Counted from the stretch's first letter, positions 1,547 through 19,538 are shown. The stretch is 35,122 bases of DNA from Rhodothermales bacterium (GCA_040904565.1 JBBDTI010000049.1:1-35122); one strand, 5' to 3'. The notes: generated by a model not told the origin, from the sequence alone. Translations and numbers: made by a program.

Positions 1547-2938
1547 ATGTCTCGCGACAAGCGCATTCTCCTCTTTGCACCGTACTTCCTACCGCGCCGG
1601 CGCGTCGGATCCATGCGTCCGTTTCGATTTGCCATTCATCTGCGGGAGCATGGATGGGATCCGACCGTCCTGACGATCGCGACGCCGGACCAGACGCTGA
1701 CGAAAAAGGAAGCGGATCTCCTGAATGGGGTTGCTATACGGACGGTGGACGCTCCGATGGACCGGACGACGAAGTCGGAGAGCCAGCTGGGGGCGGCATC
1801 TACCCCGCGATCGACGCGAGATGCAACCATCCTCGCGCGGCTCCTGAACACGATCGATCGGCAGTTCCCCGTCGATACGTGGTTGATATTGTTTGCTCTT
1901 CGATTTCGATCGATGGTTCGTCAGGTTCGGGAGGTCGACCCGCACGTACTCTGGGCGACGGGGGACCCGTGGTCCGGCCTCGTCGTCGGGCGCCGGCTCA
2001 GCCGGCGACTTCAGATACCGTACATCGCGGATTTCCGCGATCCGTGGACCCTCTCGGACGTCAGAACGGATGGACAATGGGACCTTTCGAGACGGGTGGA
2101 CCGCCGGTCCGAGCGGAGGGTGATTGCGTCGGCCGATCTGGTGATGTTTCAGGCCGAGCAGGTCGAGGCCATGTATCGAGCGCACTACGCGGACCTGGCG
2201 CCGCGGACGAAGACGATTCGAAACAGCTTCGACCCGTTGATCTTCGACGATCCGGTGTACGTGCCGGGGCAGGCGGCGCCTGAGGGGGGGATCCGGGTTG
2301 CGTCGCACACATCAGGTGATGGCACACGAGATGAAGGGGACGCTCGAAGAGATCTTCATATCGGATTTTTCGGACGCTTTCGTGAGATGTCACCTGCAAC
2401 GCTCATGATCGATGTCCTGTCGGACCTTCGCCGCCGGCACGGCTCTGCGTCGGGAAGCGTATTCGTCCACTCCTTCGGCCCGCTGAGCGCCGCCGATGCA
2501 GCATACGCCCGGTCGCTGGGCGTCGAAGATCTCTTTGTGGCACACAACGCCGTGCCTCTCCAGCAGTCCCTGTCGGTGTTGCGGCGCTTCGATCTTCTGC
2601 TCGTCAGCACCGAGCCTCGCCGCCGCCATATCATTCCGGCGAAGCTGTTCGAATACCTCCCGGCAGGTCGCCCCATTCTGTCCCTCTCCCGGAATCCGGA
2701 GGTGGACGGGATCCTGCGTCGCACCGGAACCGGCGTTCAGATGCTGGACCGTCACGCCGTGGCGGACCTGCTGGCCTCCTGTCTGGACGCTCTGGCGAAG
2801 GGGGAGGCGCTGCCCGTACCCTACGAGCCGGATGGCAGCGAGATCATGAAATATGACGCCGCCACGAGCACGGCTGAACTCTCCCGCGTCTGCGACGAAC
2901 TGCTTGCGTCGTCTGGGGCAGGCTCGTCAGCCGGGTAG
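1547..2938 (+). CDS. GT-B fold glycosyltransferase (GT4-like)
   Basis: N-terminal ILLFAPYFLP..VGSMR..HLREHGWDPTVLT, DFRDPW motif and C-terminal IPAKLFEYLPAGRPIL. Confidence 0.85.
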   Translation: MSRDKRILLFAPYFLPRRRVGSMRPFRFAIHLREHGWDPTVLTIATPDQTLTKKEADLLNGVAIRTVDAPMDRTTKSESQLGAASTPRSTRDATILARLLNTIDRQFPVDTWLILFALRFRSMVRQVREVDPHVLWATGDPWSGLVVGRRLSRRLQIPYIADFRDPWTLSDVRTDGQWDLSRRVDRRSERRVIASADLVMFQAEQVEAMYRAHYADLAPRTKTIRNSFDPLIFDDPVYVPGQAAPEGGIRVASHTSGDGTRDEGDARRDLHIGFFGRFREMSPATLMIDVLSDLRRRHGSASGSVFVHSFGPLSAADAAYARSLGVEDLFVAHNAVPLQQSLSVLRRFDLLLVSTEPRRRHIIPAKLFEYLPAGRPILSLSRNPEVDGILRRTGTGVQMLDRHAVADLLASCLDALAKGEALPVPYEPDGSEIMKYDAATSTAELSRVCDELLASSGAGSSAG

Positions 2939-4572
2939 ACGAACCGGTCGAGCATATGGCCATAGTCCGCGCTGCCGGGATCCGAGTCGTAGTGCCACTC
3001 CCACTGCTGAATCTCAATGCGCCGGATTCTATCGGGCTCCGCCGCGTGCCGATTCCACCGTTCTATGACGACGTCGAGGAACGCCTGCGTCTGATGCGAC
3101 TCGACCGGGTTGAACGCTCGGGCCAGTACCCGGCGAAATCGACCGTCCGACATCGCAGGCACGCTCTTCTCGATCGGTGCGCGTATGACGTCGCCCGAAT
3201 GAAGGTGCGCCAGAACCCGCTCGTAGACCACGGGCTCTGACCGTTTCTGGGAGAACATCTGCATGCCGGTAAACGGATAAAACTCCACGCGGAAGACCCA
3301 GCACGCCGTCACGACCACGACGACCGCCACGGTCAGGCGGCGTCCCGGATCCGCGCTTCGGGTCGGCGCCGGGCGATGGGGGGCAGCGGTGAAGAATCCA
3401 CGGCTCCGGAGTCCGGCCCCGATCTGCGCGAGAAGCCGGTCGAGCACCAGGATTCGATCGGAAGCCGCGCTCAGGATGGGCCGGAAGTTAAGATAAATGA
3501 GCTGCAGCAGTATGAGGTCGAAAAACAGAATATTCTGCAGCAGCAGGATGCCGACGTGCATCAAGAGCATCAGGACGGGCATGACCCACCTGGCCTTTCT
3601 CGAGAACAGTACGAGTCCGTATAGCAGCTCTCCCACGAGGGCGGAAAGCGCGAGCGCCTCGAACAACCAGGGCGGTGCCGTGGCGAGCTCCAGCGAGATG
3701 CTGAAGTCGAACTCCATGGGCCGAAGGGTGCTCTGAAACAGGATGAACTTGAAATTAGAGGCATCCCACCACGTAAGACCGCCATTGCGCAGCTTGCTGA
3801 GTCCGGCAGCGACGTAGGGCAGCGCCATGGTTGTCCACACGGCATAGCGAGCCCATCCAAAGCGGCGCGACGGTACGTCCGGCTCGACGGCCTCGCCACG
3901 TCTTCGCTGCCGGATCCGATCGATCGAAAGGCCGCGTCCGGAAGGCAGAAACGCAAGAACGGCCTGAAGGTAGAGTGCGAGAAGGCCCGTATGATAGAAC
4001 CAGGCGTACTGGCGGAGCCATCCCCCTAGAATGAGATACATCACGGCTCCAAACGGTACCGTCCACCGCGCCTTCCACCCGATCGCGCTGAGGAACAGGA
4101 CGAGAGCCGTGAACCACTTGAGAAACGTGAGAGCGCCTGCGGAGGCTGCAACGCTCTCGTAGCCGGGCAGGAGGGCGAGCAGGTGCATCACGCCGAGCGG
4201 CTGCATCATCTCCGCCGGCAGCGCTGCCGTACTGGCCGGATCTTCCCAGAGCGTACTGATGAGCAGGGTCGAGGAAACGAGCGCACGAATGGCCCCCAGG
4301 TCGGAGGGACGCGCATCCGGTACGATGCGTGCGGAAAAATCGGGCGACTTGAGCCCACGCACGAAAACGTAGCCCGCCGTTCCCGCGGCGAAGCCGTACA
4401 CGACGATACCGTACCACTCCCCCAGGAAAAAGCCAAGCGGACGATTCGAGATCGCCGGGATCAGTCCGGAGGCGTGGATCCACTCGAGGAGCGGCGGAAC
4501 CGCGGCGAACCCGGCTACCAGCCAGGCGATCGCAGACGCCGCGTACACATGCCATCCGGAGCGAGCGGACAT
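2821..4572 (-). CDS. HTTM-like (VKGC/SdpB-related) polytopic membrane protein with fused C-terminal extracytoplasmic domain
   Basis: Many hydrophobic segments. Motifs WFYH, LSID, YVAAGLSKLRNGGLTWW, GELL, MHVGILLLQNILFF and EFYPFTGMQMFSQ. Confidence 0.7.
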   Translation of the reverse strand: MSARSGWHVYAASAIAWLVAGFAAVPPLLEWIHASGLIPAISNRPLGFFLGEWYGIVVYGFAAGTAGYVFVRGLKSPDFSARIVPDARPSDLGAIRALVSSTLLISTLWEDPASTAALPAEMMQPLGVMHLLALLPGYESVAASAGALTFLKWFTALVLFLSAIGWKARWTVPFGAVMYLILGGWLRQYAWFYHTGLLALYLQAVLAFLPSGRGLSIDRIRQRRRGEAVEPDVPSRRFGWARYAVWTTMALPYVAAGLSKLRNGGLTWWDASNFKFILFQSTLRPMEFDFSISLELATAPPWLFEALALSALVGELLYGLVLFSRKARWVMPVLMLLMHVGILLLQNILFFDLILLQLIYLNFRPILSAASDRILVLDRLLAQIGAGLRSRGFFTAAPHRPAPTRSADPGRRLTVAVVVVVTACWVFRVEFYPFTGMQMFSQKRSEPVVYERVLAHLHSGDVIRAPIEKSVPAMSDGRFRRVLARAFNPVESHQTQAFLDVVIERWNRHAAEPDRIRRIEIQQWEWHYDSDPGSADYGHMLDRFVYPADEPAPDDASSSSQTRESSAVLVAASYFMISLPSGS

Positions 4573-4587
4573 ATAGGTCCCCGGTTG

Positions 4588-5340
4588 CTACGATTCCTTC
4601 TGAAATACGGCGACGATGTGCGCGCCGCGCCGCGGTGACACGTCGCTCGTGAAACGGTCGTGGAGACCGAGCAAGACGTGTTTGAACGGCCCGAAGTTCA
4701 GGTTCACGTAGCGATTGGCCAGCAGTTTCGAAACAATCTGATAGAGGAGATTTCGGCGTGCCGTAACGTAGTGAACCTCTCGTACGGTGTAATCGGGGAA
4801 GTAGGACGCGAGAAGGTCCAGGTCGTAGTGCCGGAAATGCTTCTCGATCACCGGTCGGACCGTCGAGGGCACCGAGACGATCAGGTGTCCGCCCACCACG
4901 AGGAGACGGTCGATCTCCGAGCAGAACGCGTGGATATCCGCGTCAGGTATGTGCTCGAAGGTCTCGACGGTTGTGATAAGATCGAAGGAGGCGTCGTACC
5001 TAGCGAGATCCTTCTCGAGAAACTGCACGTCAGGCAGGTCGTGCCCGAATGCCTTTGCGAACTGTATCGCCTTGCCGTCCACGTCGATGCCTACGGCCTG
5101 CCGTCCGGTCAGGAGATCCGTGTGGCGCGCCAGATGATTGAGCAGGTACCCGTCGCCGCATCCTACATCGAGCACGCCCTTCCCGATATACTTCGCAACG
5201 AGCTCCATGACCTTTTTCATGTAGGTCAGGTAGTCGAGTCCCCAGTCCAGATTGCGAACGAAATCTTCTCGTTCGAGATCGACGAGATAGTGGTAGGGGA
5301 ACCGGTACTGTGCCGCCTGGATGTCGGTCTTATCTCTCAT
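4588..5340 (-). CDS. Class I SAM-dependent methyltransferase
   Basis: Motif I VLDVGCGDG, GID, FDLITTVETFEHI and GGHLIVSVP. Confidence 0.9.
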   Translation of the reverse strand: MRDKTDIQAAQYRFPYHYLVDLEREDFVRNLDWGLDYLTYMKKVMELVAKYIGKGVLDVGCGDGYLLNHLARHTDLLTGRQAVGIDVDGKAIQFAKAFGHDLPDVQFLEKDLARYDASFDLITTVETFEHIPDADIHAFCSEIDRLLVVGGHLIVSVPSTVRPVIEKHFRHYDLDLLASYFPDYTVREVHYVTARRNLLYQIVSKLLANRYVNLNFGPFKHVLLGLHDRFTSDVSPRRGAHIVAVFQKES

Positions 5341-5362
5341 GCGTACGACGTGCTGCGTGGGG

Positions 5363-6253
5363 TCAGGTATAACGGATACTGACGCGTTCGATGCCGTGCA
5401 TCCAGGGCTGGCGCGCCGTCAGGGCGTCGAGCCATGCCGCCCAGGGCAAGGCCAGCAGTACGAGCTCGTAGACGGCCAACGTGAAGAAAATATTCATCAC
5501 GAGATAGATGCCGATGTGTAATGCGATGACGGCCAGAAGGGCCGGCGTGCGCGTCCGCTTCCACCAGGCGAGAAAGGCAAACAGCTCCGTCAGGAGTCCG
5601 ACCGTAAGAAATGCCGTGGCCGTACCCTGTCCGCTCAACACCAGCTCCTGTAGGACATTGAGGTCGTACGTGCCCGTCTTCGCCAGGTTGTCGACGCTCT
5701 TCTCATAGACCCACAGCCAGAGATGCCGGCCGTCCGACCAGTTTAACCCCGTTCCTATCAACTTGGAAATGCCGGCGAGCGTGTAGCCGAGTCCGACGAA
5801 GAAGTACGTGAACCCGAGCGTAAAGCGCCGCCGGTGCAGTCCGTCTCGGAAGACCAGCAAGGCGATGGCGAGGCCGAGGAGCGTCATCCCAAGCATGTTC
5901 GAGCTATGGGGGATCTCTCCGAGTGAAAACCGCGCGGCATACTGCAGATGAAGGAGCAAAAACGCGCCGAGGTAGGCCCCTCTCCACAGCCGGAAAAACC
6001 CGATGACGACAAGCACCGTGATCGCTCCGGCATTGGCCAGCGGAAGCCGGCCGTCGAACATGAAGCTCACGTCGACGTAGCGAGCCATCCCGAGCGGAAG
6101 CACGACGTCAGAGATGCGCAGCGTATACAGGCCCCATTCCCACGCGAGCTTGACGGAGGCCAGGGCGACGAACAGCTCGAAGATCTTAAAAAATATCGCT
6201 TCGCCCGCCGACGGCTTGCGCTCGTAGTCGAAAAGATTGTCAAGCAGTTCCAT
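5363..6253 (-). CDS. HTTM-like membrane protein (transmembrane half only)
   Basis: Motifs EIPH, YTLAGISKLIGTGLNWSDG, TELF and LHIGIYLVMNIFF occur in the same order as in the 583-aa protein. Confidence 0.7.
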   Translation of the reverse strand: MELLDNLFDYERKPSAGEAIFFKIFELFVALASVKLAWEWGLYTLRISDVVLPLGMARYVDVSFMFDGRLPLANAGAITVLVVIGFFRLWRGAYLGAFLLLHLQYAARFSLGEIPHSSNMLGMTLLGLAIALLVFRDGLHRRRFTLGFTYFFVGLGYTLAGISKLIGTGLNWSDGRHLWLWVYEKSVDNLAKTGTYDLNVLQELVLSGQGTATAFLTVGLLTELFAFLAWWKRTRTPALLAVIALHIGIYLVMNIFFTLAVYELVLLALPWAAWLDALTARQPWMHGIERVSIRYT

Positions 6254-6265
6254 ACACTCGACCGG

Positions 6266-6733
6266 TCAACGGGGCAGGTGGTCGCTAGACATCGTTTCGT
6301 CGTGCGTCAGCAGGACGTACGGCTCGAAGGAAAGAATCACCAAATCTGACGCGGAAATTCGGCCGCGGGCTCGCAAGACGAGCAGATGACGCCGGTCCAG
6401 CTCGTCCTCACCGAACATCTTGCGGAGCGCGGCGAGGCGGTCGTCATCCCATATTTCCGTCTTGGATACGAAGTTGGCCAGGTCGATGTGGTCGATCCCG
6501 TGTTGCGCCAGCGGATAGGGATCCCCGGGGAGATGCTCTAGACGGGTGGACTCCCACCGCACGCTGTCGTCCGGAACCTCGCGTACGACGGCTCGGGACC
6601 AGGGGATACCGCCCTGAGAGAACATGGGATAGATGCTAAACGGCCAGAACTCACCCAGATTCGTCGCTACGAGAAAGGCATAAACCAGGAGCGTGCCGAG
6701 CAGCACACGTAGGGACTTCTTCTGGCGGGTCAC
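6266..6733 (-). CDS. Membrane-anchored ~155-aa protein, probable partner (C-terminal half) of the HTTM protein
   Basis: 3' part of ORF 6266..7615, with probable GTG start (MTRQKKSLRVLLGTLLVYAFLVAT). One TM helix, then EFWPFSIYPMFSQ. Ends 12 bp before the next gene. Confidence 0.7.
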   Translation of the reverse strand: MTRQKKSLRVLLGTLLVYAFLVATNLGEFWPFSIYPMFSQGGIPWSRAVVREVPDDSVRWESTRLEHLPGDPYPLAQHGIDHIDLANFVSKTEIWDDDRLAALRKMFGEDELDRRHLLVLRARGRISASDLVILSFEPYVLLTHDETMSSDHLPR

Positions 6734-6985
6734 GGGACGTAGCTGGACGATGGCTGCATTTACGATGACGCGTTTACCGCCGCGGCGGTCGGTCACGCCG
6801 GGCGACCGGTGGATCCGGCGCCGTCCGACGCGCTGAACCGTCGTTCTCCTACCTAAGACGAACGTCGACGCTCGAGGTTCAGGCTCCGGATTGACTCGCC
6901 ATTTATTCGTAATGTCTCGTGGACGCGGGTCCGTGTCCGGCCCGCTACCTTCTCCACGTGCTTGATTCACGCCTATCCATCCTAT

Positions 6986-8008
6986 ATGAACGTACGCGAG
7001 ATACGAAAACGCTGGAGCGACTTCACTTCGACGCGGCAGGGTGAGCGCCTGGTGAAGGGAATGCGGGCGCTCTTTCTGGCGGTCATTGTAGGCGTGCTGC
7101 TCTATCAGGTGTCCGGCATCGGATGGAGCCGCGTCCTGTCGTCCCTGCCGACGCAGCCCGCGTTCTACCTCCTCGTCCTCGCCATGTACTTCGTGCTGCC
7201 GGTAACGGAGTCGCTGATCTACGGACGGCTGTGGGGGCTGAGGCCGATGGAGTGTCTCGGCGTCATGATTCGCAAGCGGGTTTTGAATGTGGATGTCGTC
7301 GGATATTCCGGGGAGGTCTACCTCGTCCTCTGGGCTAAAACGCGCGTACGCGAGGGTACGGCGTTCGTTGTAGGCACGGTGAAGGACAACCTGATCGTCT
7401 CCGCCGCCTCGTCCCTGATCGCGGCCGCCATGCTCATCGGCATCCTGCTCGCTGCCGGACAGATTCCGCTTGCCGATGTTGTCGATGTGCCAAGCCCATT
7501 CTACGTGAGCCTGGGTGCCATCGCCGCCGTGTTCCTGGGTGTCGTCGTCTATCGATTTCGACACGTCATCTTCTCTCTCTCCCGCCGTACGCTCGCCGCC
7601 CTGTCGGCCGCCCACGTCGTACGGTTTTTCGTCGGATACGTGCTACAGGTCGCGGCCTGGTGGATCGTCATCCCGACAGCCTCGTTCCAGACATGGGCCA
7701 TCCTCCTCGTTCTGTTCGTCGTCATTAATCGCATTCCCTTCTTGCCGTCAAGCGACCTGGTCTTCGTGAGTGCCGGAGCGGGATTGACGCCTTTGCTCGA
7801 CGTACCCGTGGCGCCCGTCGTAAGCATGCTGCTGGTTCGAAGTGCCGCCGACCGTCTGTTGAACCTCGTTTTCTTCACTTCGAGTGTATGGTTGGAACGT
7901 CATGCGATGTCTACCACAGAGGATGAAGAAGTGGACGCTCGAGCCATCCAACAGGAGCTGGAAGGCGTTGGCAGCGTGGACGCGCCTCCGGATGATTTGA
8001 ATAGTTGA
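6986..8008 (+). CDS. UPF0104 / lysylphosphatidylglycerol-synthase-TM (flippase-like) membrane protein
   Basis: About 8 hydrophobic helices, LN..VGYSGEVY motif resembling the family N...GE signature, late RIPFLPS and R..D elements. Start at ATG 6986. Confidence 0.6.
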   Translation: MNVREIRKRWSDFTSTRQGERLVKGMRALFLAVIVGVLLYQVSGIGWSRVLSSLPTQPAFYLLVLAMYFVLPVTESLIYGRLWGLRPMECLGVMIRKRVLNVDVVGYSGEVYLVLWAKTRVREGTAFVVGTVKDNLIVSAASSLIAAAMLIGILLAAGQIPLADVVDVPSPFYVSLGAIAAVFLGVVVYRFRHVIFSLSRRTLAALSAAHVVRFFVGYVLQVAAWWIVIPTASFQTWAILLVLFVVINRIPFLPSSDLVFVSAGAGLTPLLDVPVAPVVSMLLVRSAADRLLNLVFFTSSVWLERHAMSTTEDEEVDARAIQQELEGVGSVDAPPDDLNS

Positions 8009-8095: not shown

Positions 8096-8797
8096 ATGAA
8101 GTCGTTATTCGTCCTTTGTTTGCTATTTCTGACGATGGAGCCGAATGGCTCGACGTATCCTTGGGGGGACAGCTCCGTCGTCGTAGCCGACTTCGAGGGC
8201 GATACGCCGGGAGCTTTGCCTTCCGGATGGGGATATCTTTCGAGCCGAAATCGTCGCTTCCAGTCGGCCGTGGCCGTAATGGATCCGAATCAGAAATTCG
8301 AAGTGCACGCGGAAGAGGGAAACCGCTTCGTACGCGCCTATACGAAGGGCGAAGCCCAGCGTATTTCTCTGCGCGCTGAGGCGCTGGACTGGAAATTGTC
8401 GGAGTATCCGCGCCTGCGGTGGTCGTGGCGGGCCCTTCGTCTACCGGAAGGAGCACGAGAGGATCGCGTCAACGATTCGGGAGGTGCCATCTACGTATCG
8501 TTTTCGAAGACGGATTGGTTGGGCCGGCCGCTGAGCATCAAATATACGTACAGCTCCACGCTGCCCGTAGGCACGGTCGTTTCTACGGGGAACGTCAAGA
8601 TCATCGTGGCGTCAAGCGGCCTGAACGGCATCGGCAGCTGGCTAACGGTAGATCGAAATGTGGTAGATGATTATCGGAGGGTTTTTGGGTCCGATCCGCC
8701 CGACGAACCGTTTACCATCACGCTGTGGAGCGACTCGGACAATACCGGTTCGATAGGGGAAGTCGATTTCGATGATATAGAGATCGTGACGGAGTGA
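8096..8797 (+). CDS. DUF3047 domain secreted/periplasmic protein
   Basis: Signal-peptide-like N-terminus. YPRLRWSWR, ND.GGAIYVSF, IKYTYSS, W..VDRNVVDDYRRVFG and SDSDNTG motifs. Confidence 0.8.
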   Translation: MKSLFVLCLLFLTMEPNGSTYPWGDSSVVVADFEGDTPGALPSGWGYLSSRNRRFQSAVAVMDPNQKFEVHAEEGNRFVRAYTKGEAQRISLRAEALDWKLSEYPRLRWSWRALRLPEGAREDRVNDSGGAIYVSFSKTDWLGRPLSIKYTYSSTLPVGTVVSTGNVKIIVASSGLNGIGSWLTVDRNVVDDYRRVFGSDPPDEPFTITLWSDSDNTGSIGEVDFDDIEIVTE

Positions 8798-8877: not shown

Positions 8878-11433
8878 ATGAGCCGTATTTTTGATGTATT
8901 TCGCCCCGTCATTCGGGTGGTCGTGAGACGTGCCTGGGCGGTGGTCGTCGTGGCTGCCCTGATGACGGTCGTTGGATTCTATTTTGCCCGCCAGCTCAGC
9001 ATCGATACGGACTTCTCGAACCTCATTCCGTCCGACTACGCCAGCGTTCAGGCACTGGAAGCGCTGCGCGAAACCGTGGGCAGTGAGACGACGGCCGAAG
9101 TCGTGATCCGGAGTCCATCGTTCGACGCGAATAAGGCATTCGCTGAGGCATTTATTCCGCGGGCGCTCGAGCTGGAGGACCCCGCAACGGGTGAGCCGTA
9201 TCTGGCCCGCGTCGATTACGAGAAGGATACGGAATTCCTCGAGCGGAACGCCCTCTATTTCGCAACGAGCGCCGAGCTGGACAGCCTGGAGAGATACCTG
9301 CGGGATCGAATACGGGACGCGAAACTGGAGGCCAACCCGTTCTATTTCGACCTCGATGACGAAGAGGACGCCGCCGAAGATGAGGGCTTCGACATCGAGC
9401 GGGGCCTTCACGAGGTCTACGATCAGGTTGTCGGGAAGCGCTATCCCATAAACGACGATAGCACGATCATGGTGCTTCGTTTCTATCCGACGGGCTCCCA
9501 GACCAATATCGGTTTCATCGAAGGTCTCTACGACGACCTTGAATCCCTCGCCGGCGAGCTCGACCCGGCATCGTACCACGCGGAAATGGACGTGATCCTG
9601 GCGGGGCGCCTGCTCAGGCAGCTCGTAGAGATACAGGCCATCACTGGAGACGTGGTCACGTCGTTTGCGGCCGGCGTCGCGTCGGTACTTCTGGTCGTTC
9701 TCCTGTATTTCTTCTACAAGGGATATACGGCTCGGGCCGGACATCGCTTTGCCGGCCGGGTCTTCCTTACGCAGGTCGCACGCACGCCGGCCATGGCCGT
9801 GTTGATAGGCGCGCCACTCCTGATGAGTCTGGCGTGGACGTTCGGTGTGGCGTACCTGACGTACGGAACGCTGAACCTGATGACATCTACACTGGGTCTG
9901 GTGCTGTTTGGGCTCGGTATCGATTACGGAATACACTTCTACGCTCGATACTCGGAGGAGCGACGTTCAGGTTTGAGCGTGGCGGAGGCGGCAGAGGTGA
10001 CGTTCGGCACGACGGGACAGGCGATAGCCGTGGGTGCCATGACGACGGCGGGGGCGTTATACGTGCTCATGTTGGCAGACTTTCGCGGGTTCAGCGAGTT
10101 TGGATTTATTGCCGGAACGGGCGTTCTTTTCGCACTCGTATCCATGACGGTCGTCATGCCCGCGCTGCTCGTCCTTTTCGAACGCCATCGCCTGCTCAAT
10201 ATGGAATCCAACGAGGGGGCCCAGTTGTCGGCGGACGGTTTTCGGAGGCGGCTGCCTGGAGCGCGTGCGATCATTCTCGTCAGCGTGGCGGCCGTCGTGG
10301 CAGCCCTGGTATTTCTTCCCCGGGTGGGGTTTGAGTATGACTTCGGTGCCCTCGAGCCGGAATACGAGTCGTACGAGGCGAAGAGAGATCTCGTGCGTGA
10401 GGTGTACTCCAGCCGGGGCAGCAATCCGGCCTACGTCCTGGTCGACGACCCCGCTGATGTACGCGAGGTGGTCGACGTGATCGAGCGCCGTATGGCCGAA
10501 GACACGCTCTCCCCTACGATCGACCGCGTCGAGACGCTTCAGGACCGCTTTCCGACGACCGACGAAGGACGTCAAGAGAAGCTCGATCACATCGCGGATA
10601 TACGAGAGCTGCTCTCCGATCCACTCGTGCAGGCAGACTTGGAAGGGGATACCGATTTAGCACGTATCGAGCGGGCGGCCCAGACGACGGAGCCGCTGAC
10701 GGTCGATCAGGTCCCCGAGAGCATTCGCAATCAGTTCACATCGAAGTCGGGCGCGGTCGGCGGTTTTGTAATGATCTATCCAGCCGTGGGTCTGTCGGAC
10801 GGTCGCCTTTCGATGGCGTTTGCCGAGGACGTGGGAACGATCGTTACGCCGCAAGGAGTCAGTTATCATGCGGGGTCCACCTCCCTCGTCGCCGCCGACA
10901 TGCTGCGCCTGATGTTGAAGGAGGCGCCGTACATGATTGCCCTCACCTTTCTGATCGTCGCCCTCCTGATGTGGGTCAACTTTCGGTCGATTCGATGGGC
11001 GGCACTGGCGACCGTACCGCTCGTAGTGGGCGTTCTCTGGATGCTTCTGACGATGGAAATGATCGGACTGAGATTAAACTTCTACAATCTCGTCGTGCTG
11101 CCCGCCGTGCTGGGCATCGGTAACGATGCCGGCGTCCACCTCGTGCACAGGTATCGGGAGGAGGGAGAGGGCTCGATGCTCCGCGTACTGCGCTACACCG
11201 GTGAACATATTACGATGGGCTCCCTGACGACCATGATCGGATTCGGAGGCCTCATGTTGAGCTTTCATCCCGGCCTTGACTCGATCGGCCGTCTGGCCGT
11301 TGTCGGGATCGGGATGACGCTTCTGGCCGCCATGATCTTTCTGCCTGCCCTGTTGCAGTGGCTCGAGGACCGGGGGGATGCACCGGCGTCCGACGTCGGC
11401 GAACGGCCTGACGAAGTGATGGTGAAGCCGTAG
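8878..11433 (+). CDS. MMPL/RND family lipid exporter
   Basis: 851 aa with two repeats of 1 TM + large loop + 5 TM. LSIDTDFSNLIP, GLGIDYGIHF and GIGNDAGVHL motifs. Confidence 0.9.
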   Translation: MSRIFDVFRPVIRVVVRRAWAVVVVAALMTVVGFYFARQLSIDTDFSNLIPSDYASVQALEALRETVGSETTAEVVIRSPSFDANKAFAEAFIPRALELEDPATGEPYLARVDYEKDTEFLERNALYFATSAELDSLERYLRDRIRDAKLEANPFYFDLDDEEDAAEDEGFDIERGLHEVYDQVVGKRYPINDDSTIMVLRFYPTGSQTNIGFIEGLYDDLESLAGELDPASYHAEMDVILAGRLLRQLVEIQAITGDVVTSFAAGVASVLLVVLLYFFYKGYTARAGHRFAGRVFLTQVARTPAMAVLIGAPLLMSLAWTFGVAYLTYGTLNLMTSTLGLVLFGLGIDYGIHFYARYSEERRSGLSVAEAAEVTFGTTGQAIAVGAMTTAGALYVLMLADFRGFSEFGFIAGTGVLFALVSMTVVMPALLVLFERHRLLNMESNEGAQLSADGFRRRLPGARAIILVSVAAVVAALVFLPRVGFEYDFGALEPEYESYEAKRDLVREVYSSRGSNPAYVLVDDPADVREVVDVIERRMAEDTLSPTIDRVETLQDRFPTTDEGRQEKLDHIADIRELLSDPLVQADLEGDTDLARIERAAQTTEPLTVDQVPESIRNQFTSKSGAVGGFVMIYPAVGLSDGRLSMAFAEDVGTIVTPQGVSYHAGSTSLVAADMLRLMLKEAPYMIALTFLIVALLMWVNFRSIRWAALATVPLVVGVLWMLLTMEMIGLRLNFYNLVVLPAVLGIGNDAGVHLVHRYREEGEGSMLRVLRYTGEHITMGSLTTMIGFGGLMLSFHPGLDSIGRLAVVGIGMTLLAAMIFLPALLQWLEDRGDAPASDVGERPDEVMVKP

Positions 11434-14280: not shown

Positions 14281-17160
14281 TTACAGGACGTCCTTGAGGT
14301 ATCGGCCCGTATGGCTGTCCGGTGACCGCGCGATGTCTTCGGGCGTGCCTTCCGCGACGACGAAACCGCCGCGTCGACCGCCTTCGGGTCCCAGGTCGAT
14401 AACCCAGTCGGATGATTTGATGACGTCCAGATTGTGTTCTACGAGGATGACGGAATGCCCTTCATCCACCAGCGCGTTCAGCGCCCCCATGAGCTTCTTG
14501 ATGTCGTCGAAGTGAAGTCCGGTCGTCGGTTCGTCCAGCACGTACAGGACGCGATCGCGGGTCGACTTACCAAGGAAGGAGGCGAGTTTCAGGCGCTGTG
14601 ACTCGCCGCCCGAAAGCGTGTTGGATGGCTGTCCGAGCGTGAGATAGCCGAGGCCGATATCCTGCAGCACACTCAGCTTGTTTGTGAGCGCCGTCTGGTC
14701 GTCGAAGAAGTCCGCCGCTTCGTCGACCGTCATATTCAGGATATCGTCGACGTTCTTGCCGTCGTAATGGATGTCGAGCACTTCCTGCTTGTACCGGCGC
14801 CCCTTGCACGCCTCACATTGCAGATAGAGGTCGGCCAGAAACTGCATCTCCACTTTTACGACCCCCTCACCCTTGCATGCTTCGCAGCGTCCTCCGGGTA
14901 CGTTGAATGAGAAATATCCGGGTTTGTGGCCGCGGATGCGGGCCTGATACGTATTCGAAAGCAGGTCGCGTATGTGATCGAACGCCTTCGTATATGTGGC
15001 CGGATTCGATCGAGGGGTCTTCCCGATCGGGTCCTGGTCGACCATCTCGATCTGGTCGACGAGCATGTGACCGCGAATAGCGTCGTGCGTGCCGGCGCCA
15101 TCGTCCACGCTCAGGCCCTTCAGGCGTGCCAGCCCGTTATAGAGCGTGTCGTGGACGAGCGTCGATTTACCCGATCCGCTGACGCCCGTCACACACGTGA
15201 TCATTCCGAGCGGAAACCGTACGTCGAGCCGTTTGAGATTGTGCTGCCGCGCGTTTTCGACGCGAACAACGTTCTCCTCGTCCAGTGGGCGGCGATCGGT
15301 CGGGACGGGTATCTGCTCGCGCCCGCTCAGGTAGGCGCCGGTGAGCGACGTTTCGTCCGTAAGCAGGGCGTCGTACGTACCCTGAAATATAACCTCTCCC
15401 CCGAAGCGACCGGCACCCGGACCCAGGTCCACGACCTGGTCTGCTCGCTCCATCATCGCGGCTTCGTGCTCGACGACGATGACGGTATTGCCGATGTCTC
15501 GGAGGTTTTCCAGAATATTGATCAGCCGGCCGTTGTCCCGCGGATGCAGCCCGATCGACGGCTCGTCGAGTACGTACAGCGAGCCGACGAGCGAAGAACC
15601 GAGAGACGTGGCCAGATTTATGCGCTGGCTCTCTCCGCCCGACAGCGTTTGTGACAGCCGGTCGAGCGTAAGGTAATCCAGACCGACCTCAACGAGATAC
15701 TTCAGTCGTTTCCTGATTTCCTCCAGAACCCGGCCGGCCACTTCCTCCTCATACTCGGTCAGATCGAGCGTTTCGAAGAACTGCCGTGCGTCCTGCGTCG
15801 TGAGCTCGCAAATCTGCCCGATATGATGGTCCTGAATGCGGACGTGCCGAGCCGCCTCTCGAACGCGATATCCATGGCATGCCGGACATCTGGAATACCC
15901 TCGAAAACGGGCCCGGAAGATGCGGTAGTGCATCTTATAGTTATGCTTCTCGAGAAAATCGAAGAAGCCGTGAATGCCGATATAATCCCCCTCGCCGTTC
16001 CAGATGAGGTCCTTTACCTCCTCCGGGAGCAGGCGGTACGGTGCGTCGATGTTAATCCGCCGTTCGGCGGCGATGCGGATCAGCTCGCGAAAGTTCTTGC
16101 CCCATTGATCGGTTCGGAACGGAGCGATGGCCCCCTGCCTGATCGACAGATCTTCGTTGGGGATGATGAGATGCTCGTCGAGGCCGGCTACGCGGCCGAA
16201 TCCCTGGCATTTCGGGCAGGCGCCGACCGGACTGTTGAAGGAGAACAGGAGCGGCGTCGGTTCTTCGAATCGAATGCCGTCGCGTTCGAAATATTCGCTG
16301 AAATAGAGCGTCTTGCCGCCGCGGATGCGGACGACGCAGCGGCCGTTGCCCTCTCGAAAGGCCTGGTCTACCGAATCCGCCGCGCGCGATCGCGCCGCAT
16401 CGTCGTCCTTCCGTACAGCCAGCCGATCTACCACGACAAGCAGCCGGTCGCGTGCAAAATTATTGACTTCATTCGGAGGGGTCTCGTTCAGGTCAAACAG
16501 CTCTGCCCCGGCTCCTGCTTGCTGCTGCCGTTCCGTGGGAAGAAGCAGGATCCGAAAGAAGCCCCGCTGGCGCAGCGCGCTCAACTCTTCCTTCAGCGTC
16601 GTGTCTTCGTGCTCGGGGACCGGAAAGCAGAGGTAGAAGCGCGTACGATCGTCGTACCCATCGAATACCTCGTCCGCGACGGACCGGGGCGAGTCTCTCG
16701 TCACTTCCCGGCCGCTGACCGGAGAAATCGTTCGGCCGATCCGTGCGTAGAGCAGCCGCAGATGATCGTAGACCTCCGTCTGCGTCGCCACCGTTGAGCG
16801 CGGATTCTTCGACGTGGTCTTTTGCTCGATGGCGATGGCCGGGGCAAGTCCCGTAATCAGGTCGGCGTCCGGCTTATCCATCCGCTCCAGGAATTGACGG
16901 GCGTATGCGCTCAGGCTCTCCACGTACCGGCGCTGCCCCTCCGCATAGATGGTGTCGAATGCGAGGGAGGACTTGCCCGACCCGGACGGCCCCGTAAATA
17001 CGATCAGCTTGTTGCGGGGAAGGTCAAGATCGACCCCCTTCAGATTGTGCTGGCGGGCGCCTCGAATAACGATGTGCGTCCGGGCGGCACGCTTGGCTTC
17101 AACGTCGGCGTGTGCACCGACAGGTGCCTGAGAGGTGAGGGATTCCGTCGTCGTGGCCAT
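14281..17160 (-). CDS. uvrA: Excinuclease ABC subunit A (UvrA paralog)
   Basis: GARQHNLK, two Walker A motifs (GPSGSGKSS, GVSGSGKST), EGQRRYVESLS, LSGGESQR twice, LDEP twice and CxxC zinc modules. Confidence 0.95.
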   Translation of the reverse strand: MATTTESLTSQAPVGAHADVEAKRAARTHIVIRGARQHNLKGVDLDLPRNKLIVFTGPSGSGKSSLAFDTIYAEGQRRYVESLSAYARQFLERMDKPDADLITGLAPAIAIEQKTTSKNPRSTVATQTEVYDHLRLLYARIGRTISPVSGREVTRDSPRSVADEVFDGYDDRTRFYLCFPVPEHEDTTLKEELSALRQRGFFRILLLPTERQQQAGAGAELFDLNETPPNEVNNFARDRLLVVVDRLAVRKDDDAARSRAADSVDQAFREGNGRCVVRIRGGKTLYFSEYFERDGIRFEEPTPLLFSFNSPVGACPKCQGFGRVAGLDEHLIIPNEDLSIRQGAIAPFRTDQWGKNFRELIRIAAERRINIDAPYRLLPEEVKDLIWNGEGDYIGIHGFFDFLEKHNYKMHYRIFRARFRGYSRCPACHGYRVREAARHVRIQDHHIGQICELTTQDARQFFETLDLTEYEEEVAGRVLEEIRKRLKYLVEVGLDYLTLDRLSQTLSGGESQRINLATSLGSSLVGSLYVLDEPSIGLHPRDNGRLINILENLRDIGNTVIVVEHEAAMMERADQVVDLGPGAGRFGGEVIFQGTYDALLTDETSLTGAYLSGREQIPVPTDRRPLDEENVVRVENARQHNLKRLDVRFPLGMITCVTGVSGSGKSTLVHDTLYNGLARLKGLSVDDGAGTHDAIRGHMLVDQIEMVDQDPIGKTPRSNPATYTKAFDHIRDLLSNTYQARIRGHKPGYFSFNVPGGRCEACKGEGVVKVEMQFLADLYLQCEACKGRRYKQEVLDIHYDGKNVDDILNMTVDEAADFFDDQTALTNKLSVLQDIGLGYLTLGQPSNTLSGGESQRLKLASFLGKSTRDRVLYVLDEPTTGLHFDDIKKLMGALNALVDEGHSVILVEHNLDVIKSSDWVIDLGPEGGRRGGFVVAEGTPEDIARSPDSHTGRYLKDVL

Positions 17161-17399
17161 TTCAGCGCGTGGAACTGCATTCAAACGTACAACCAACTTC
17201 AACGCGGCTGGTGATGCAATGATGCATAATTGTCGCACCGCAATGTCGCATCGTGCTGGAGATCGGCTCGACGGAACTGGGCGTTCTCGGCCTCAGTAGC
17301 AACCATCGGCCGCATCTCCACGCTTGGTTGTACGGGACTTTCGTCCGGGTCCGCGACGGACCGTCAACCGTCCAACCGCCAACCGCTCCACCGTCTTAC

Positions 17400-19538
17400 A
17401 TGGAATTTCTTAATCCGCTGGCTCTTGCCGCGCTTGCCGCGGCTGTCATTCCGCTGATTATCCACCTGTTTAATTTCCGGCGGCCCCGGAAGGTGGATTT
17501 CAGTTCCCTGGCGTTTGTGAAGGAACTCCAGAAGTCGACGATGCGACGCGTGCGCATCAAGCAGTGGCTGCTGCTCGTCCTGCGCATCCTGGCTATCGCA
17601 TGTCTGGTGCTGGCCTTCGCAAGGCCGACCCTAACGGGCAACGTAGCCGGGGCGGTGGGAGGGCGTGCCGCCTCGTCGGTTGCCATCGTTATCGACAATT
17701 CGCCGTCCATGAGCCTCCGCGACGCGGAAGGCGAGTATCTGCGCCAGGCCAAGGACATTGCCGCCGGCATCATCGATGCGCTGGCCGACGGCGACGAACT
17801 GTTTCTGGTGCCGACGTCCGGAGTCGGCGCGACGTGGGATCGATTTTCGACTACGGGCGCGGCCATGGAGGCCGTCGAGCGCATCGAGGTTCGTCCGGGC
17901 GGACGTACGGTACCGGAAGCGACGGCCGAAGCGGGGCGCGCGCTGGAAAGCGCCGCCCATATTAATCGAGAGATTTACGTGATTTCCGACCTGCAGGAGT
18001 CCGCCATGCCCGACTCCACTGCCTCCGACGGCGGTGGGGGCACCTCGACGTATCGAACGTATCTGCTGCCGATCGGCGACCGGATTCATGCGAATGTGGC
18101 CGTCACCGACGTACAGGTGGAAAGCCGCATCCTCGAGATGGGGCAGCCGATGCGCCTTTCGGCGACGCTGGTCAACTACGGCACGGACCCGATCGAGGGC
18201 GACGTGGCGAGCGTGTTTCTCGAAGGGCAGCGTCTCGCGCAGACCACCGTCGACCTCGAACCCCGCGTTCCGACGACGGCGCACTTCACGGCCTCGCCCC
18301 AGCAGCGGGGATGGTTGTCCGGCATCGTTCAGATCGGAGATGACGGCTTCGTTTTCGACAACGAGCGCTATTTTACGGCGCACGTTCCCGACCGCCGATC
18401 GGTGCTCGTCGTGCGCGGTGATGGGCAGGACGCCGGCTATCTACAGCTCGCCTTTTCACCCGATCTCGGGCGAGATCGGGTGGCTTTTGACGTCGAGGCC
18501 ATTCCAGAGACCGGACTTCCGGCCGCTGACCTGAGCCGATTCGACGTCGTCGTTCTCGTCGGGCCACGCTCCCTGTCGACCGGCGAGGTCGCATCACTTG
18601 AGAGGTACGTCTCGGCGGGCGGGGGCCTGTTCATCACCCCTCCGAATGAGCCGGTGCCTTCGGAATACGACGACCTGCTCGGAGTGCTCGGTGGCGGCTC
18701 CCTCTCCGGTTTCAGTGGATCCGTAGAATCGAATCGCAGCATCGCGGCCTTCGAGCGCGTGGAGCTGGAGCACAATCTCTTTGAGGGCATGTTCCGCGAC
18801 CGACCCACGGACTCGGAGCGGGCCGTGGAGAGCCCGGACATCTACCGAGCCGTCAACTACGCGCCGGGGCCGGGCAACGAACAGTCGCTTATCAGCCTTT
18901 CAAACGGCTATCCCTTTCTCCAGGAGATCCGGCACGGACGCGGCGTCGCGTTCCTTATGGCCGTAGCCCCCAACAGGATGTGGAGCGACCTCCCGGTGCG
19001 CGGTCTCTTCATTCCGTTGATGTATCGGACCATGTACTATCTCTCCGCATCCGAATCCGTTGCCGGCGAACAGCTAACGGCGGCATCTCCCGCGGAACTG
19101 CGCGTTCCGCGCGTTTCGGATGCGGCGCAGCTCCGTATCGTGAGTCCGGATGGGACGGAATATGTGCCCGAGCAGCGGGATCTCTTCGGGGCCTCCCTGC
19201 TGACGATCGACGGTGCCGTGATCGAGCAGCCCGGCATCTACGACGTACGTGCCGGAGAGGACGTCGTAAGGCGCGTCCCGGTGAACGTGGACGAGGCCGA
19301 GTCTGACCTATCCACGCTGGAGGATGAGGAGGGGCGTGCCCGCCTGGCCTCTTCGCTTGGCTGGGATGTCGACCTCATTCCGGCAGGCGGACGCGCACCT
19401 GGCGATGTCGTGGCCTCCGTCGCACAACAGCGAATGGGGGTCGAGCTGTGGAACCTGTTCCTGCTCCTGGCCCTCGCGTTTCTGATTGCTGAAACCGTCG
19501 TTGCGAAGCGGTGGCGCCCGGAAGGCGTGCCGGCTTAG
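17400..19538 (+). CDS. BatA-domain / vWA membrane protein
   Basis: MEFLNPLAL..IPLIIHLF..FSSL..WLLLVLR..LAFARP BatA N-terminus, MIDAS DNSPSM and ISD, DN.RY, and C-terminal ELW..AE TM. Confidence 0.9.
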   Translation: MEFLNPLALAALAAAVIPLIIHLFNFRRPRKVDFSSLAFVKELQKSTMRRVRIKQWLLLVLRILAIACLVLAFARPTLTGNVAGAVGGRAASSVAIVIDNSPSMSLRDAEGEYLRQAKDIAAGIIDALADGDELFLVPTSGVGATWDRFSTTGAAMEAVERIEVRPGGRTVPEATAEAGRALESAAHINREIYVISDLQESAMPDSTASDGGGGTSTYRTYLLPIGDRIHANVAVTDVQVESRILEMGQPMRLSATLVNYGTDPIEGDVASVFLEGQRLAQTTVDLEPRVPTTAHFTASPQQRGWLSGIVQIGDDGFVFDNERYFTAHVPDRRSVLVVRGDGQDAGYLQLAFSPDLGRDRVAFDVEAIPETGLPAADLSRFDVVVLVGPRSLSTGEVASLERYVSAGGGLFITPPNEPVPSEYDDLLGVLGGGSLSGFSGSVESNRSIAAFERVELEHNLFEGMFRDRPTDSERAVESPDIYRAVNYAPGPGNEQSLISLSNGYPFLQEIRHGRGVAFLMAVAPNRMWSDLPVRGLFIPLMYRTMYYLSASESVAGEQLTAASPAELRVPRVSDAAQLRIVSPDGTEYVPEQRDLFGASLLTIDGAVIEQPGIYDVRAGEDVVRRVPVNVDEAESDLSTLEDEEGRARLASSLGWDVDLIPAGGRAPGDVVASVAQQRMGVELWNLFLLLALAFLIAETVVAKRWRPEGVPA

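Follow-up and report, generated by a model that had tools for sequence, protein, structure and literature searches.

Bacterial HTTM proteins are numerous and, to our knowledge, the reaction is known for almost none of them. In the sdpABC genes of Bacillus subtilis, the small gene sdpA stands directly before sdpB, which encodes a protein of the HTTM type. For human γ-glutamyl carboxylase (GGCX), two reports describe that N159, H160 and Y395 hold the carboxylate of the substrate Glu and that K218, together with D263, deprotonates the quinol (PMC12647623, PMC13486548). The distribution of such an enzyme over two chains is already known in principle from a 2026 preprint, which limits the surprise of a further case: a DUF5819 protein and the adjacent HTTM-DCC1 protein of Melghirimyces thermohalophilus form a complex, predicted with AlphaFold 3, that resembles the whole GGCX, and MloH of malonomycin biosynthesis is the fused form of this split (bioRxiv 10.64898/2026.08.19.745780). 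Here we compare with these systems an operon of a Rhodothermales bacterium, located in a stretch of 35,122 nucleotides (GCA_040904565.1 JBBDTI010000049.1:1-35122) that is called the window in the following. Its four open reading frames (ORFs) on the minus strand encode proteins of 155, 296, 250 and 583 amino acids (aa), separated by gaps of 12, 22 and 15 bp. A first-pass annotation of the sequence had described this operon, and the gaps and motifs quoted there are all present in the ORFs and translations. Our preferred explanation, to which we assign a probability of about 0.6, is that the 155-aa and 296-aa proteins are one two-subunit integral-membrane enzyme of the GGCX (HTTM) type, in which the small protein supplies the equivalent of a module that other members carry fused.

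The association of the two proteins is visible in the gene order. From a sample of one genome per species, 213 stretches encoding relatives were obtained, and the best 80 loci, of unequal lengths and mostly from Rhodothermales and Balneolales, were taken. In 80 of 80 loci, the 296-type gene lies immediately downstream of the small gene on the same strand. The gap between the two, estimated from heuristically picked gene starts, has a median of 2 bp, and in 22 of the 80 loci the genes overlap by 4 bp. Both families are of similar size (464 small-protein and 417 296-type matches), and of 151 genomes sampled from the class, 68 (about 45%) have the small gene, as do 32 of 60 genera. Four pair-bearing loci (L039, L041, L066 and L081) are labelled as metagenome-assembled genomes of KSB1, Nannocystaceae, Marinilabilia and Reichenbachiella, which is due either to horizontal transfer or to binning errors.

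The structure of a 155+296 complex was predicted with alignments of both families that were built in the present analysis. Three runs gave ipSAE (interaction prediction score from aligned errors) values of 0.89, 0.89 and 0.87, compared to 0.00 for the best of three controls; the mark of the benchmark is attained by 116 of 157 solved complexes and by 2 of 215 mismatched pairs. Contacts agreed between the runs to at least 95%, and the pLDDT (predicted local distance difference test) of the partner was at least 86. In the model, the helix of the small subunit (residues 3–18) packs against core residues 126–152, and the motif residues 28–42 contact residues 102–123 of the 296-aa protein, including H116 and N119, as well as residues 156–196 with K164. 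W30-P31 is predicted to lie beside H116 in a manner that mirrors the Y395/His arrangement of GGCX. The observed synteny and the modelled complex thus support the 155-aa protein as an obligate partner of the 296-aa protein. This agrees with the first-pass annotation, in which the small protein was assumed to be an obligate subunit and the heterodimer prediction was proposed as a check.

The 296-aa protein itself is supported by sequence comparison as a distant HTTM paralogue of the 583-aa protein. BLASTP aligned both proteins with E 3e-7 and 25% identity over 199 columns. On the family level, hhalign gave a probability of 96.9% and E 1.6e-10 over 122 columns, which begin at the Lys motif and run to where the core ends. 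A further match (BLASTP E 2e-4) was obtained to P0125, a protein with a third HTTM paralogue as its core. Pfam and NCBIfam, including the SdpB model, returned no match for the 296-aa protein or for any of 44 family members, and PDB sequence searches gave nothing for either the small or the 296-aa family.

Residues of a potential active site are conserved accordingly in the alignments. Invariant positions are H116, N119, K164, W172, E223 and H246 in the 296-aa family (44 sequences) and H194, K260, W268 and H339 in the 583-aa family (60 sequences), where E315 is nearly so. The two histidines and the lysine resembling K218, said in the first-pass annotation to be retained, are therefore invariant in both families. 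K164 pairs with K260 in BLASTP as well as in hhalign, and K260 in turn pairs with the lysine of 'AGVKKL' in GGCX; this profile alignment is weak, with an E of 6–9 that is non-significant alone. It also places 'HTGL' on 'NNHSYL' and 'YVAAGLSKL' on 'YFIAGVKKL'. The histidines of 'IPH/FYH' are unpaired in the BLASTP alignment, which misplaces the first one; the pairing of H116, H194 and GGCX H160 appears instead via P0125 as a bridge (KINH...YSYDGL against EIPH...FRDGL) and in the weak GGCX alignment. Judged from spacing, E315 and E223 probably occupy the position of GGCX D263.

The same residue pattern is suggested for the window proteins as for the giant-virus epoxidases (VKE/VKED). These keep the catalytic Lys, have Glu in place of D263 and Ile in place of N290, and a lipid-modifying role is proposed for them; they are described as lacking the GGCX segment 374–418, with no small ORF supplying it (PMC13486548). 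In contrast, the segment is fused in the 583-aa protein and would be provided in trans for the 296-aa protein.

The 583-aa protein belongs to a populous family of proteins of about 550 aa, counting 1038 cluster representatives at E<=1e-3, of which 263 remain at E<=1e-30. It passes the Pfam HTTM model PF05090 marginally (29.4 bits at a cut-off of 27.7, E 7.6e-7, residues 152–364) and consists of two extra N-terminal helices, the HTTM core, a transmembrane (TM) helix at 409–426, a motif at 430–442, an alpha/beta C-domain and a tail. An AlphaFold 2 model built with 60 family sequences as alignment reached a pLDDT of 91.2 and a predicted template modelling score (pTM) of 0.89. With this model, the top 16 Foldseek matches in the PDB were all human GGCX (best E 4.0e-6). 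VIA-align superposed it on GGCX 9l6q_A with Z 20.7 and a root-mean-square deviation of 4.2 Å over 319 aligned residues; the next unrelated chain that is not GGCX reached Z 8.2. Since residues 72–481 of the model are placed on GGCX 38–436, the match spans the core, the TM helix behind it and the motif loop. According to its predicted structure, the 583-aa protein has the GGCX/HTTM membrane fold, and the fold check proposed at the outset was positive for it. The best viral structural match was the epoxidase-desaturase of Yasminevirus (E 3.7e-5), and the PDB sequence search with the 583-aa family yielded GGCX rows of non-significant score only. With LMF1, the protein shares an HTTM-like core followed by a C-terminal extracytoplasmic domain; the match to PF06762, however, is below the cut-off (E 9.3e-4, 19.8 bits, cut-off 27), and LMF1 is a protein of the eukaryotic endoplasmic reticulum. 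The SdpB model TIGR04033 gave 12.6 bits, under its cut-off of 178.4.

Compared to human GGCX, the similarities comprise this superposition, the invariant equivalents of H160 and K218 in both window families, the acidic residue at the spacing of D263 and an aromatic-Pro/Gly loop after the TM helix, where GGCX has L394-Y395-G396. The identity, in contrast, is 11–15%. The C-domain has only about 120 residues, so that a propeptide-binding clamp of the size found in GGCX is absent. The pair has its C-terminal module on a chain of its own, whose gene precedes that of the core, and a substrate of the Gla type is not evident.

The 155-aa protein has a positively charged N-terminus, one TM helix (residues 3–24), the motif EFWPFSIYPMFSQ at residues 28–40 and an alpha/beta domain of about 110 residues. 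In its AlphaFold 2 model (pLDDT 85.3) the motif is a loop of low confidence. The protein can be assigned to no known family or fold: it has 464 relatives of 85–272 aa, the 120 listed relatives contained no Pfam domain, and clusters found in the ESM Atlas were unnamed. At E<=1, the models for SdpA (PF17418) and DUF5819 (PF19136) matched none of the 44 family sequences, and neither model gave a six-frame match in the genome at the position of the small gene. As a control, the SdpA and HTTM models do detect matches in the Bacillus subtilis genome. Across the 44 family members EFWPFSIYPMFSQ is nearly invariant, with E28, F29, W30, P31, S33, I34, P36, M37, F38 and S39 strictly so.

In its architecture the small protein nevertheless corresponds to the SdpA and DUF5819 partners, with an N-terminal TM helix, an extracytoplasmic domain, an adjacent HTTM-like gene and a predicted complex. 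As in the DUF5819/HTTM-DCC1 system, a small protein with one TM helix and an HTTM protein are encoded next to each other, and a fused counterpart exists. In the complex predicted in that preprint, the helix of the small protein completes the bundle and its domain takes the place of the GGCX lumenal domain. The differences are that the window small protein is not a DUF5819 protein, that the 296-aa core has no DCC1 domain and escapes detection by Pfam HTTM, that the genes are found in a context of lipid export and glycosyltransfer, and that the fused paralogue is part of the same operon.

What the small protein shares with the C-terminal module of the 583-aa chain is a TM helix, then E-F-[WY]-P-x5-M-F-S, and then the same order of secondary-structure elements. 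In the 583-aa family (60 sequences) P433 of the motif is fully conserved and E430 and M439 are almost so. BLASTP of the 155-aa protein against the 583-aa C-terminus found 8 of 13 residues identical (E 0.031). With the C-terminal part alone, hhalign aligned 18 columns with a score of 26.0 and P 9e-4, compared to 12.6 and P 0.21 for the reversed control. The motif match is thus above chance but modest. When the motifs were superposed without gaps, the DSSP strings agreed at 100 of 155 positions, which is rank 2 of 429 offsets (mean 60.4, standard deviation 10.3). The shared order is a helix, a strand, two or three helices and two long strands. From the motif of 13–18 residues and this order we infer that the small protein is equivalent to the fused C-terminal module.

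An example of a natural fusion was searched for among the longer proteins, where P0125 (539 aa) was the sole case. It consists of an HTTM core followed by a homologue of the small subunit with 63% identity and shows that an order of core and then small module is viable. The third HTTM paralogue that forms its core, about 365 aa in length, occurs in 16 of the 80 loci, in 11 of these on the opposite strand, and is absent from the genome of the window. In five loci it forms an ORF of its own immediately in front of the small gene (L002, 8855-9976 on the plus strand, L004, L012, L020 and L059); in L002 a single in-frame stop stands between the two genes.

Several observations weigh against the two-subunit reading. 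None of 44 members of the 296-aa family is detected by the Pfam HTTM model at E<=1, and against one canonical HTTM of the same genome, on contig C95, hhalign gave E 0.025 for this family and 9.9e-4 for the 583-aa family; both values are weak because a single sequence makes a poor profile. The position of K217 is Ser in the 296-aa and 583-aa proteins (SKL), and I342 and I249 (H-x-G-I) are, from their spacing, the likely occupants of the N290 position, so that quinol binding may differ. Of the loss of both residues supposed in the first-pass annotation, the Ser is thus confirmed and the Ile is suggested by spacing. The ipSAE is the model's own confidence and comes from self-built alignments. Foldseek with the model of the small protein, also proposed there as a check, gave no meaningful solved match, GGCX included (best E 0.36), and VIA-align against 48,161 chains reached a best Z of 3.8; such blanks neither show a new fold nor exclude a GGCX-like domain. 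In the whole-family hhalign of small and 583-aa proteins (probability 2.2%, E 0.021) there is no similarity beyond the motif of 13–18 residues, and global mode or a low mact lengthened the motif alignment without confidence. Of the claim that the 155-aa protein matches the fused C-terminus, the motif stands, and beyond 18 columns nothing could be aligned confidently. The DSSP agreement is partly favoured, as strands occur only in the C-terminus of the 583-aa protein. P0125 contains a third paralogue and not a core of the 296-aa type, forms one cluster of one sequence and, since the genes are separated by a stop in five related loci, could be a read-through or an error. Finally, glycosyltransferases are common genes, so that their proximity is weak evidence; neither a substrate gene nor a Gla-type target was found, nor was a DCC1-like partner in the 94.9%-complete genome. 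The canonical HTTM mentioned above (L001:1477-3768, plus strand, 287 bits, E 2.1e-85) begins a 1176-aa open frame that is open at its 3' end, and its position is unrelated to the operon.

Some of these points could also be understood if the small protein binds the 296-aa core as an unrelated accessory subunit, its resemblance to the C-module being convergent and no true Rosetta stone. The short length of the alignment, the missing structural match of the small domain to GGCX and a sole fusion that joins a different paralogue, maybe by read-through, would fit such a convergence. We consider it improbable, as conservation in both families is highest in the motif, which lies at the same distance after the TM helix, and the later secondary-structure elements all coincide, ungapped, over 155 residues. 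Furthermore, the segment of the 583-aa protein lies within the region aligned to GGCX 38–436, and the predicted complex puts the motif on the His/Lys site.

Following the two-subunit reading, the 296-aa protein would be the catalytic helical core, in which H116 stands for GGCX H160, K164 for K218, the lysine that deprotonates the quinol, and E223 probably for D263. The 155-aa protein would deliver in trans the C-terminal module that is fused in GGCX and in the 583-aa paralogue. This module may consist of an extra TM helix packed on the core, the aromatic-Pro loop EFWPFSIYPMFSQ over the His/Lys site and a periplasmic cap domain, where the loop would be the counterpart of the substrate-carboxylate loop of GGCX (393–404 with Y395). 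By analogy to GGCX, a membrane quinol, presumably menaquinol, and O2 could generate a strong base at the periplasmic face of the membrane, and with this base a substrate would be modified, possibly carboxylated, at the same face. To judge from the gene context, the substrate may be a lipid, glycolipid or glycan of the envelope that the neighbouring GT4-type glycosyltransferases produce and an HpnN-like RND transporter moves. The 583-aa protein and the methyltransferase could form a two-gene cassette gained in a small clade and would probably catalyse a related but separate step. Quinol dependence and substrate of the pair are both inferred here from likeness and neighbourhood.

New compared to the systems described before are a small-subunit family without a model, an HTTM core invisible to Pfam and the strict pairing of both throughout the class, as well as the context of lipid export and glycosyltransferases and the single-chain paralogue in the same operon. 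Neither the small subunit, which has no Pfam or NCBIfam model, nor the core missed by Pfam is annotated as a family, and in literature on bacterial HTTM domains, on DUF3047 and on HTTM in Rhodothermus, Salinibacter, Rhodothermales and Balneolales we found no description of the small and 296-aa families. The locus represents a natural experiment with one-piece and two-piece GGCX architecture in one operon and points towards the part of GGCX that may be deliverable in trans, namely TM helix, Y395-type loop and cap. Both families occur in about 45% of the sampled Rhodothermia genomes, and some of the organisms carrying them are cultivable.

The first-pass annotation regarded the fused and split proteins as versions of the same enzyme. 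Their HTTM cores are homologous, as shown by the hhalign probability given above, but they are old paralogues that came together in a small clade, rather than two states of one enzyme. A simple frameshift break had been excluded there already, and the small-gene-first order together with the identity of only 25% rules out a recent split. We also rejected a recent fusion or fission between the pair and the 583-aa gene, in view of the same low identity, the opposite gene order and the differing phyletic distributions.

It could still be argued that the fused and the split enzyme belong to a single pathway with a common substrate; the methyltransferase would then modify either the product of both or the quinone cofactor. 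The short gaps are in line with this, and a terminator scan of the operon found 5 terminator-like sites compared to 3.3 +/- 1.9 expected, none convincing between the genes; the promoter scan gave 0 promoters. The order of all four genes also recurs: the methyltransferase and the 583-type gene follow the pair in 4 of the 80 genome loci (L003, L007, L008 and L039), and among 42 metagenome loci that contain a 583-type gene, two (L085 and L086) repeat the arrangement of the window. For the 250-aa methyltransferase the best NCBIfam match was UbiG (43.8 bits, far under the cut-off of 102.95), and the quinone methylases UbiG and UbiE are both among its sub-threshold matches. On the other hand, 76 of the 80 pair loci are without methyltransferase and 583-type gene. 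In the metagenome scan, for which 12 closer sequences served as query, 40 of the 42 583-type loci lack the pair and this methyltransferase, and 20 of the 40 hold at least 3.7 kb upstream. As exceptions among the 40, L091 contains a fragment of the small gene, and L089 and L091 both have a convergent GT4 gene. A sample of 300 further genomes of the phylum yielded no 583-type gene at E<=1e-10, though the pair is common in the class. The genes for the methyltransferase and the 583-aa protein are therefore an accessory two-gene insert, and a single pathway with a common substrate appears doubtful to us.

Table 1. Positions of the operon genes, selected codons and neighbouring genes in the window.
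Feature	Position	Strand	Remark
P0001, gene of the 155-aa small subunit	6266..6733	-	GTG start
P0002, gene of the 296-aa minimal divergent HTTM-like membrane protein	5363..6253	-	
P0004, gene of the 250-aa class I S-adenosylmethionine (SAM)-dependent methyltransferase	4588..5340	-	Methyltransf_25 E 3.4e-16
P0003, gene of the 583-aa single-chain GGCX-like protein	2821..4572	-	
Codons of small-subunit motif E28-Q40, EFWPFSIYPMFSQ	6614..6652	-	
Codons of 583-aa motif E430-Q442, EFYPFTGMQMFSQ	3247..3285	-	counterpart of small-subunit motif
Codon of K164 (AGISKL) in the 296-aa protein	5762..5764	-	proposed equivalent of GGCX K218
GT4-type glycosyltransferase	1547..2938	+	convergent with 583-aa gene
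348-aa polytopic membrane protein	6962..8008	+	no family match; divergent from pair
DUF3047 protein	8096-8797	+	E 8.1e-29
MMPL/HpnN-like RND lipid transporter	8878-11433	+	MMPL E 6.3e-32; HpnN TIGR03480 285.7 bits, below cut-off 751.85

For the start of the small gene there are two candidates, GTG 6733 and GTG 6796 (Table 1). The upstream alternative leads to a 176-aa form, which is the entry in the protein database (P0005). A 449-aa minus-strand ORF (6266-7615) was rejected as the true small gene, given that homologues begin about 20 residues before the TM helix; it also overlaps the plus-strand gene of the membrane protein and has the appearance of an open frame in GC-rich sequence. At their 3' ends, the 583-aa gene and the convergent GT4 gene overlap by 118 nt (window 2821-2938). 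The tail of the 583-aa protein encoded there (residues 556–583) is unconserved and has a pLDDT <50, and homologues cease to align near residue 546–550.

Among the 80 loci, the pair is accompanied by an MMPL transporter in 46, DUF3047 in 43, a membrane protein of the 348-aa type in 47 and GT4 in 53. The flanks in the window hold three GT4 glycosyltransferases, one of which resembles the glucosamine (GlcN)-phosphatidylglycerol synthase (169.7 bits, below the cut-off), and a MaoC dehydratase. A GT4 homologue convergent to the 583-type gene was also found in L003, L007, L008, L085, L086, L089 and L091. Of the 12 long metagenome loci examined around 583-type genes, 7 contain glycosyltransferases, and an LPG-synthase-TM protein, a GtrA/PMT fusion, a sulfatase-type enzyme, a diacylglycerol kinase and a GDPD occur in one metagenome locus each. 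This neighbourhood points to envelope lipid or glycoconjugate chemistry. The lipid or glycan target assumed in the first-pass annotation is accordingly compatible with the gene context, and the chemistry is still a matter of inference.

A peptide or protein may be considered as target instead, with the pair as a maturation or chaperone machine for an exported substrate. Models for this are SdpA/SdpB for the SDP toxin, the HTTM protein of a linaridin cluster (a paper on linaridins reportedly mentions the domain) and LMF1 for lipases. The small gene directly precedes a polytopic HTTM-type gene as in sdpAB, and the 583-aa protein shows the above-mentioned weak match to LMF1. However, the SdpA, SdpB, DUF5819 and LMF1 models all remain below their cut-offs, neither a toxin-precursor gene nor an immunity gene is present at the window locus, and a conserved small gene resembling a precursor is lacking among the recurrent neighbours, which are the RND transporter, DUF3047, the polytopic membrane protein and GT4. 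Moreover, the occurrence as a single-copy pair in about 45% of the genomes sampled from the class differs from the pattern of a bacteriocin cluster. We therefore hold a maturation function to be unlikely.

The two-subunit reading can be extended to a specific reaction, in which the pair is a menaquinol/O2-driven enzyme of the GGCX type acting on the head group of a lipid or glycolipid and the HpnN-like transporter exports the product to the outer membrane. As a whole, this proposal is speculative and has little chance of being correct in all parts. If true, it would be the first lipid-directed carboxylase or epoxidase of the vitamin K type in bacteria, with the choice of substrate left to an exchangeable small subunit that can be used by cores of the 296-aa type and of the third paralogue. 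A lipid or glycolipid target would extend vitamin K-type chemistry beyond the carboxylation of proteins and peptides. A VKOR homologue is encoded elsewhere in the genome (contig C83:12269-12670, minus strand, L127, 74.7 bits, in a 452-aa open frame) and could serve the recycling of a quinone epoxide or simply disulfide formation.

Two further genes of the window appear unrelated to the operon: a UvrA-like double ABC ATPase of 985 aa at 14281-17238 on the minus strand and a BatA/VWA aerotolerance-type protein of 761 aa at 17253-19538 on the plus strand.

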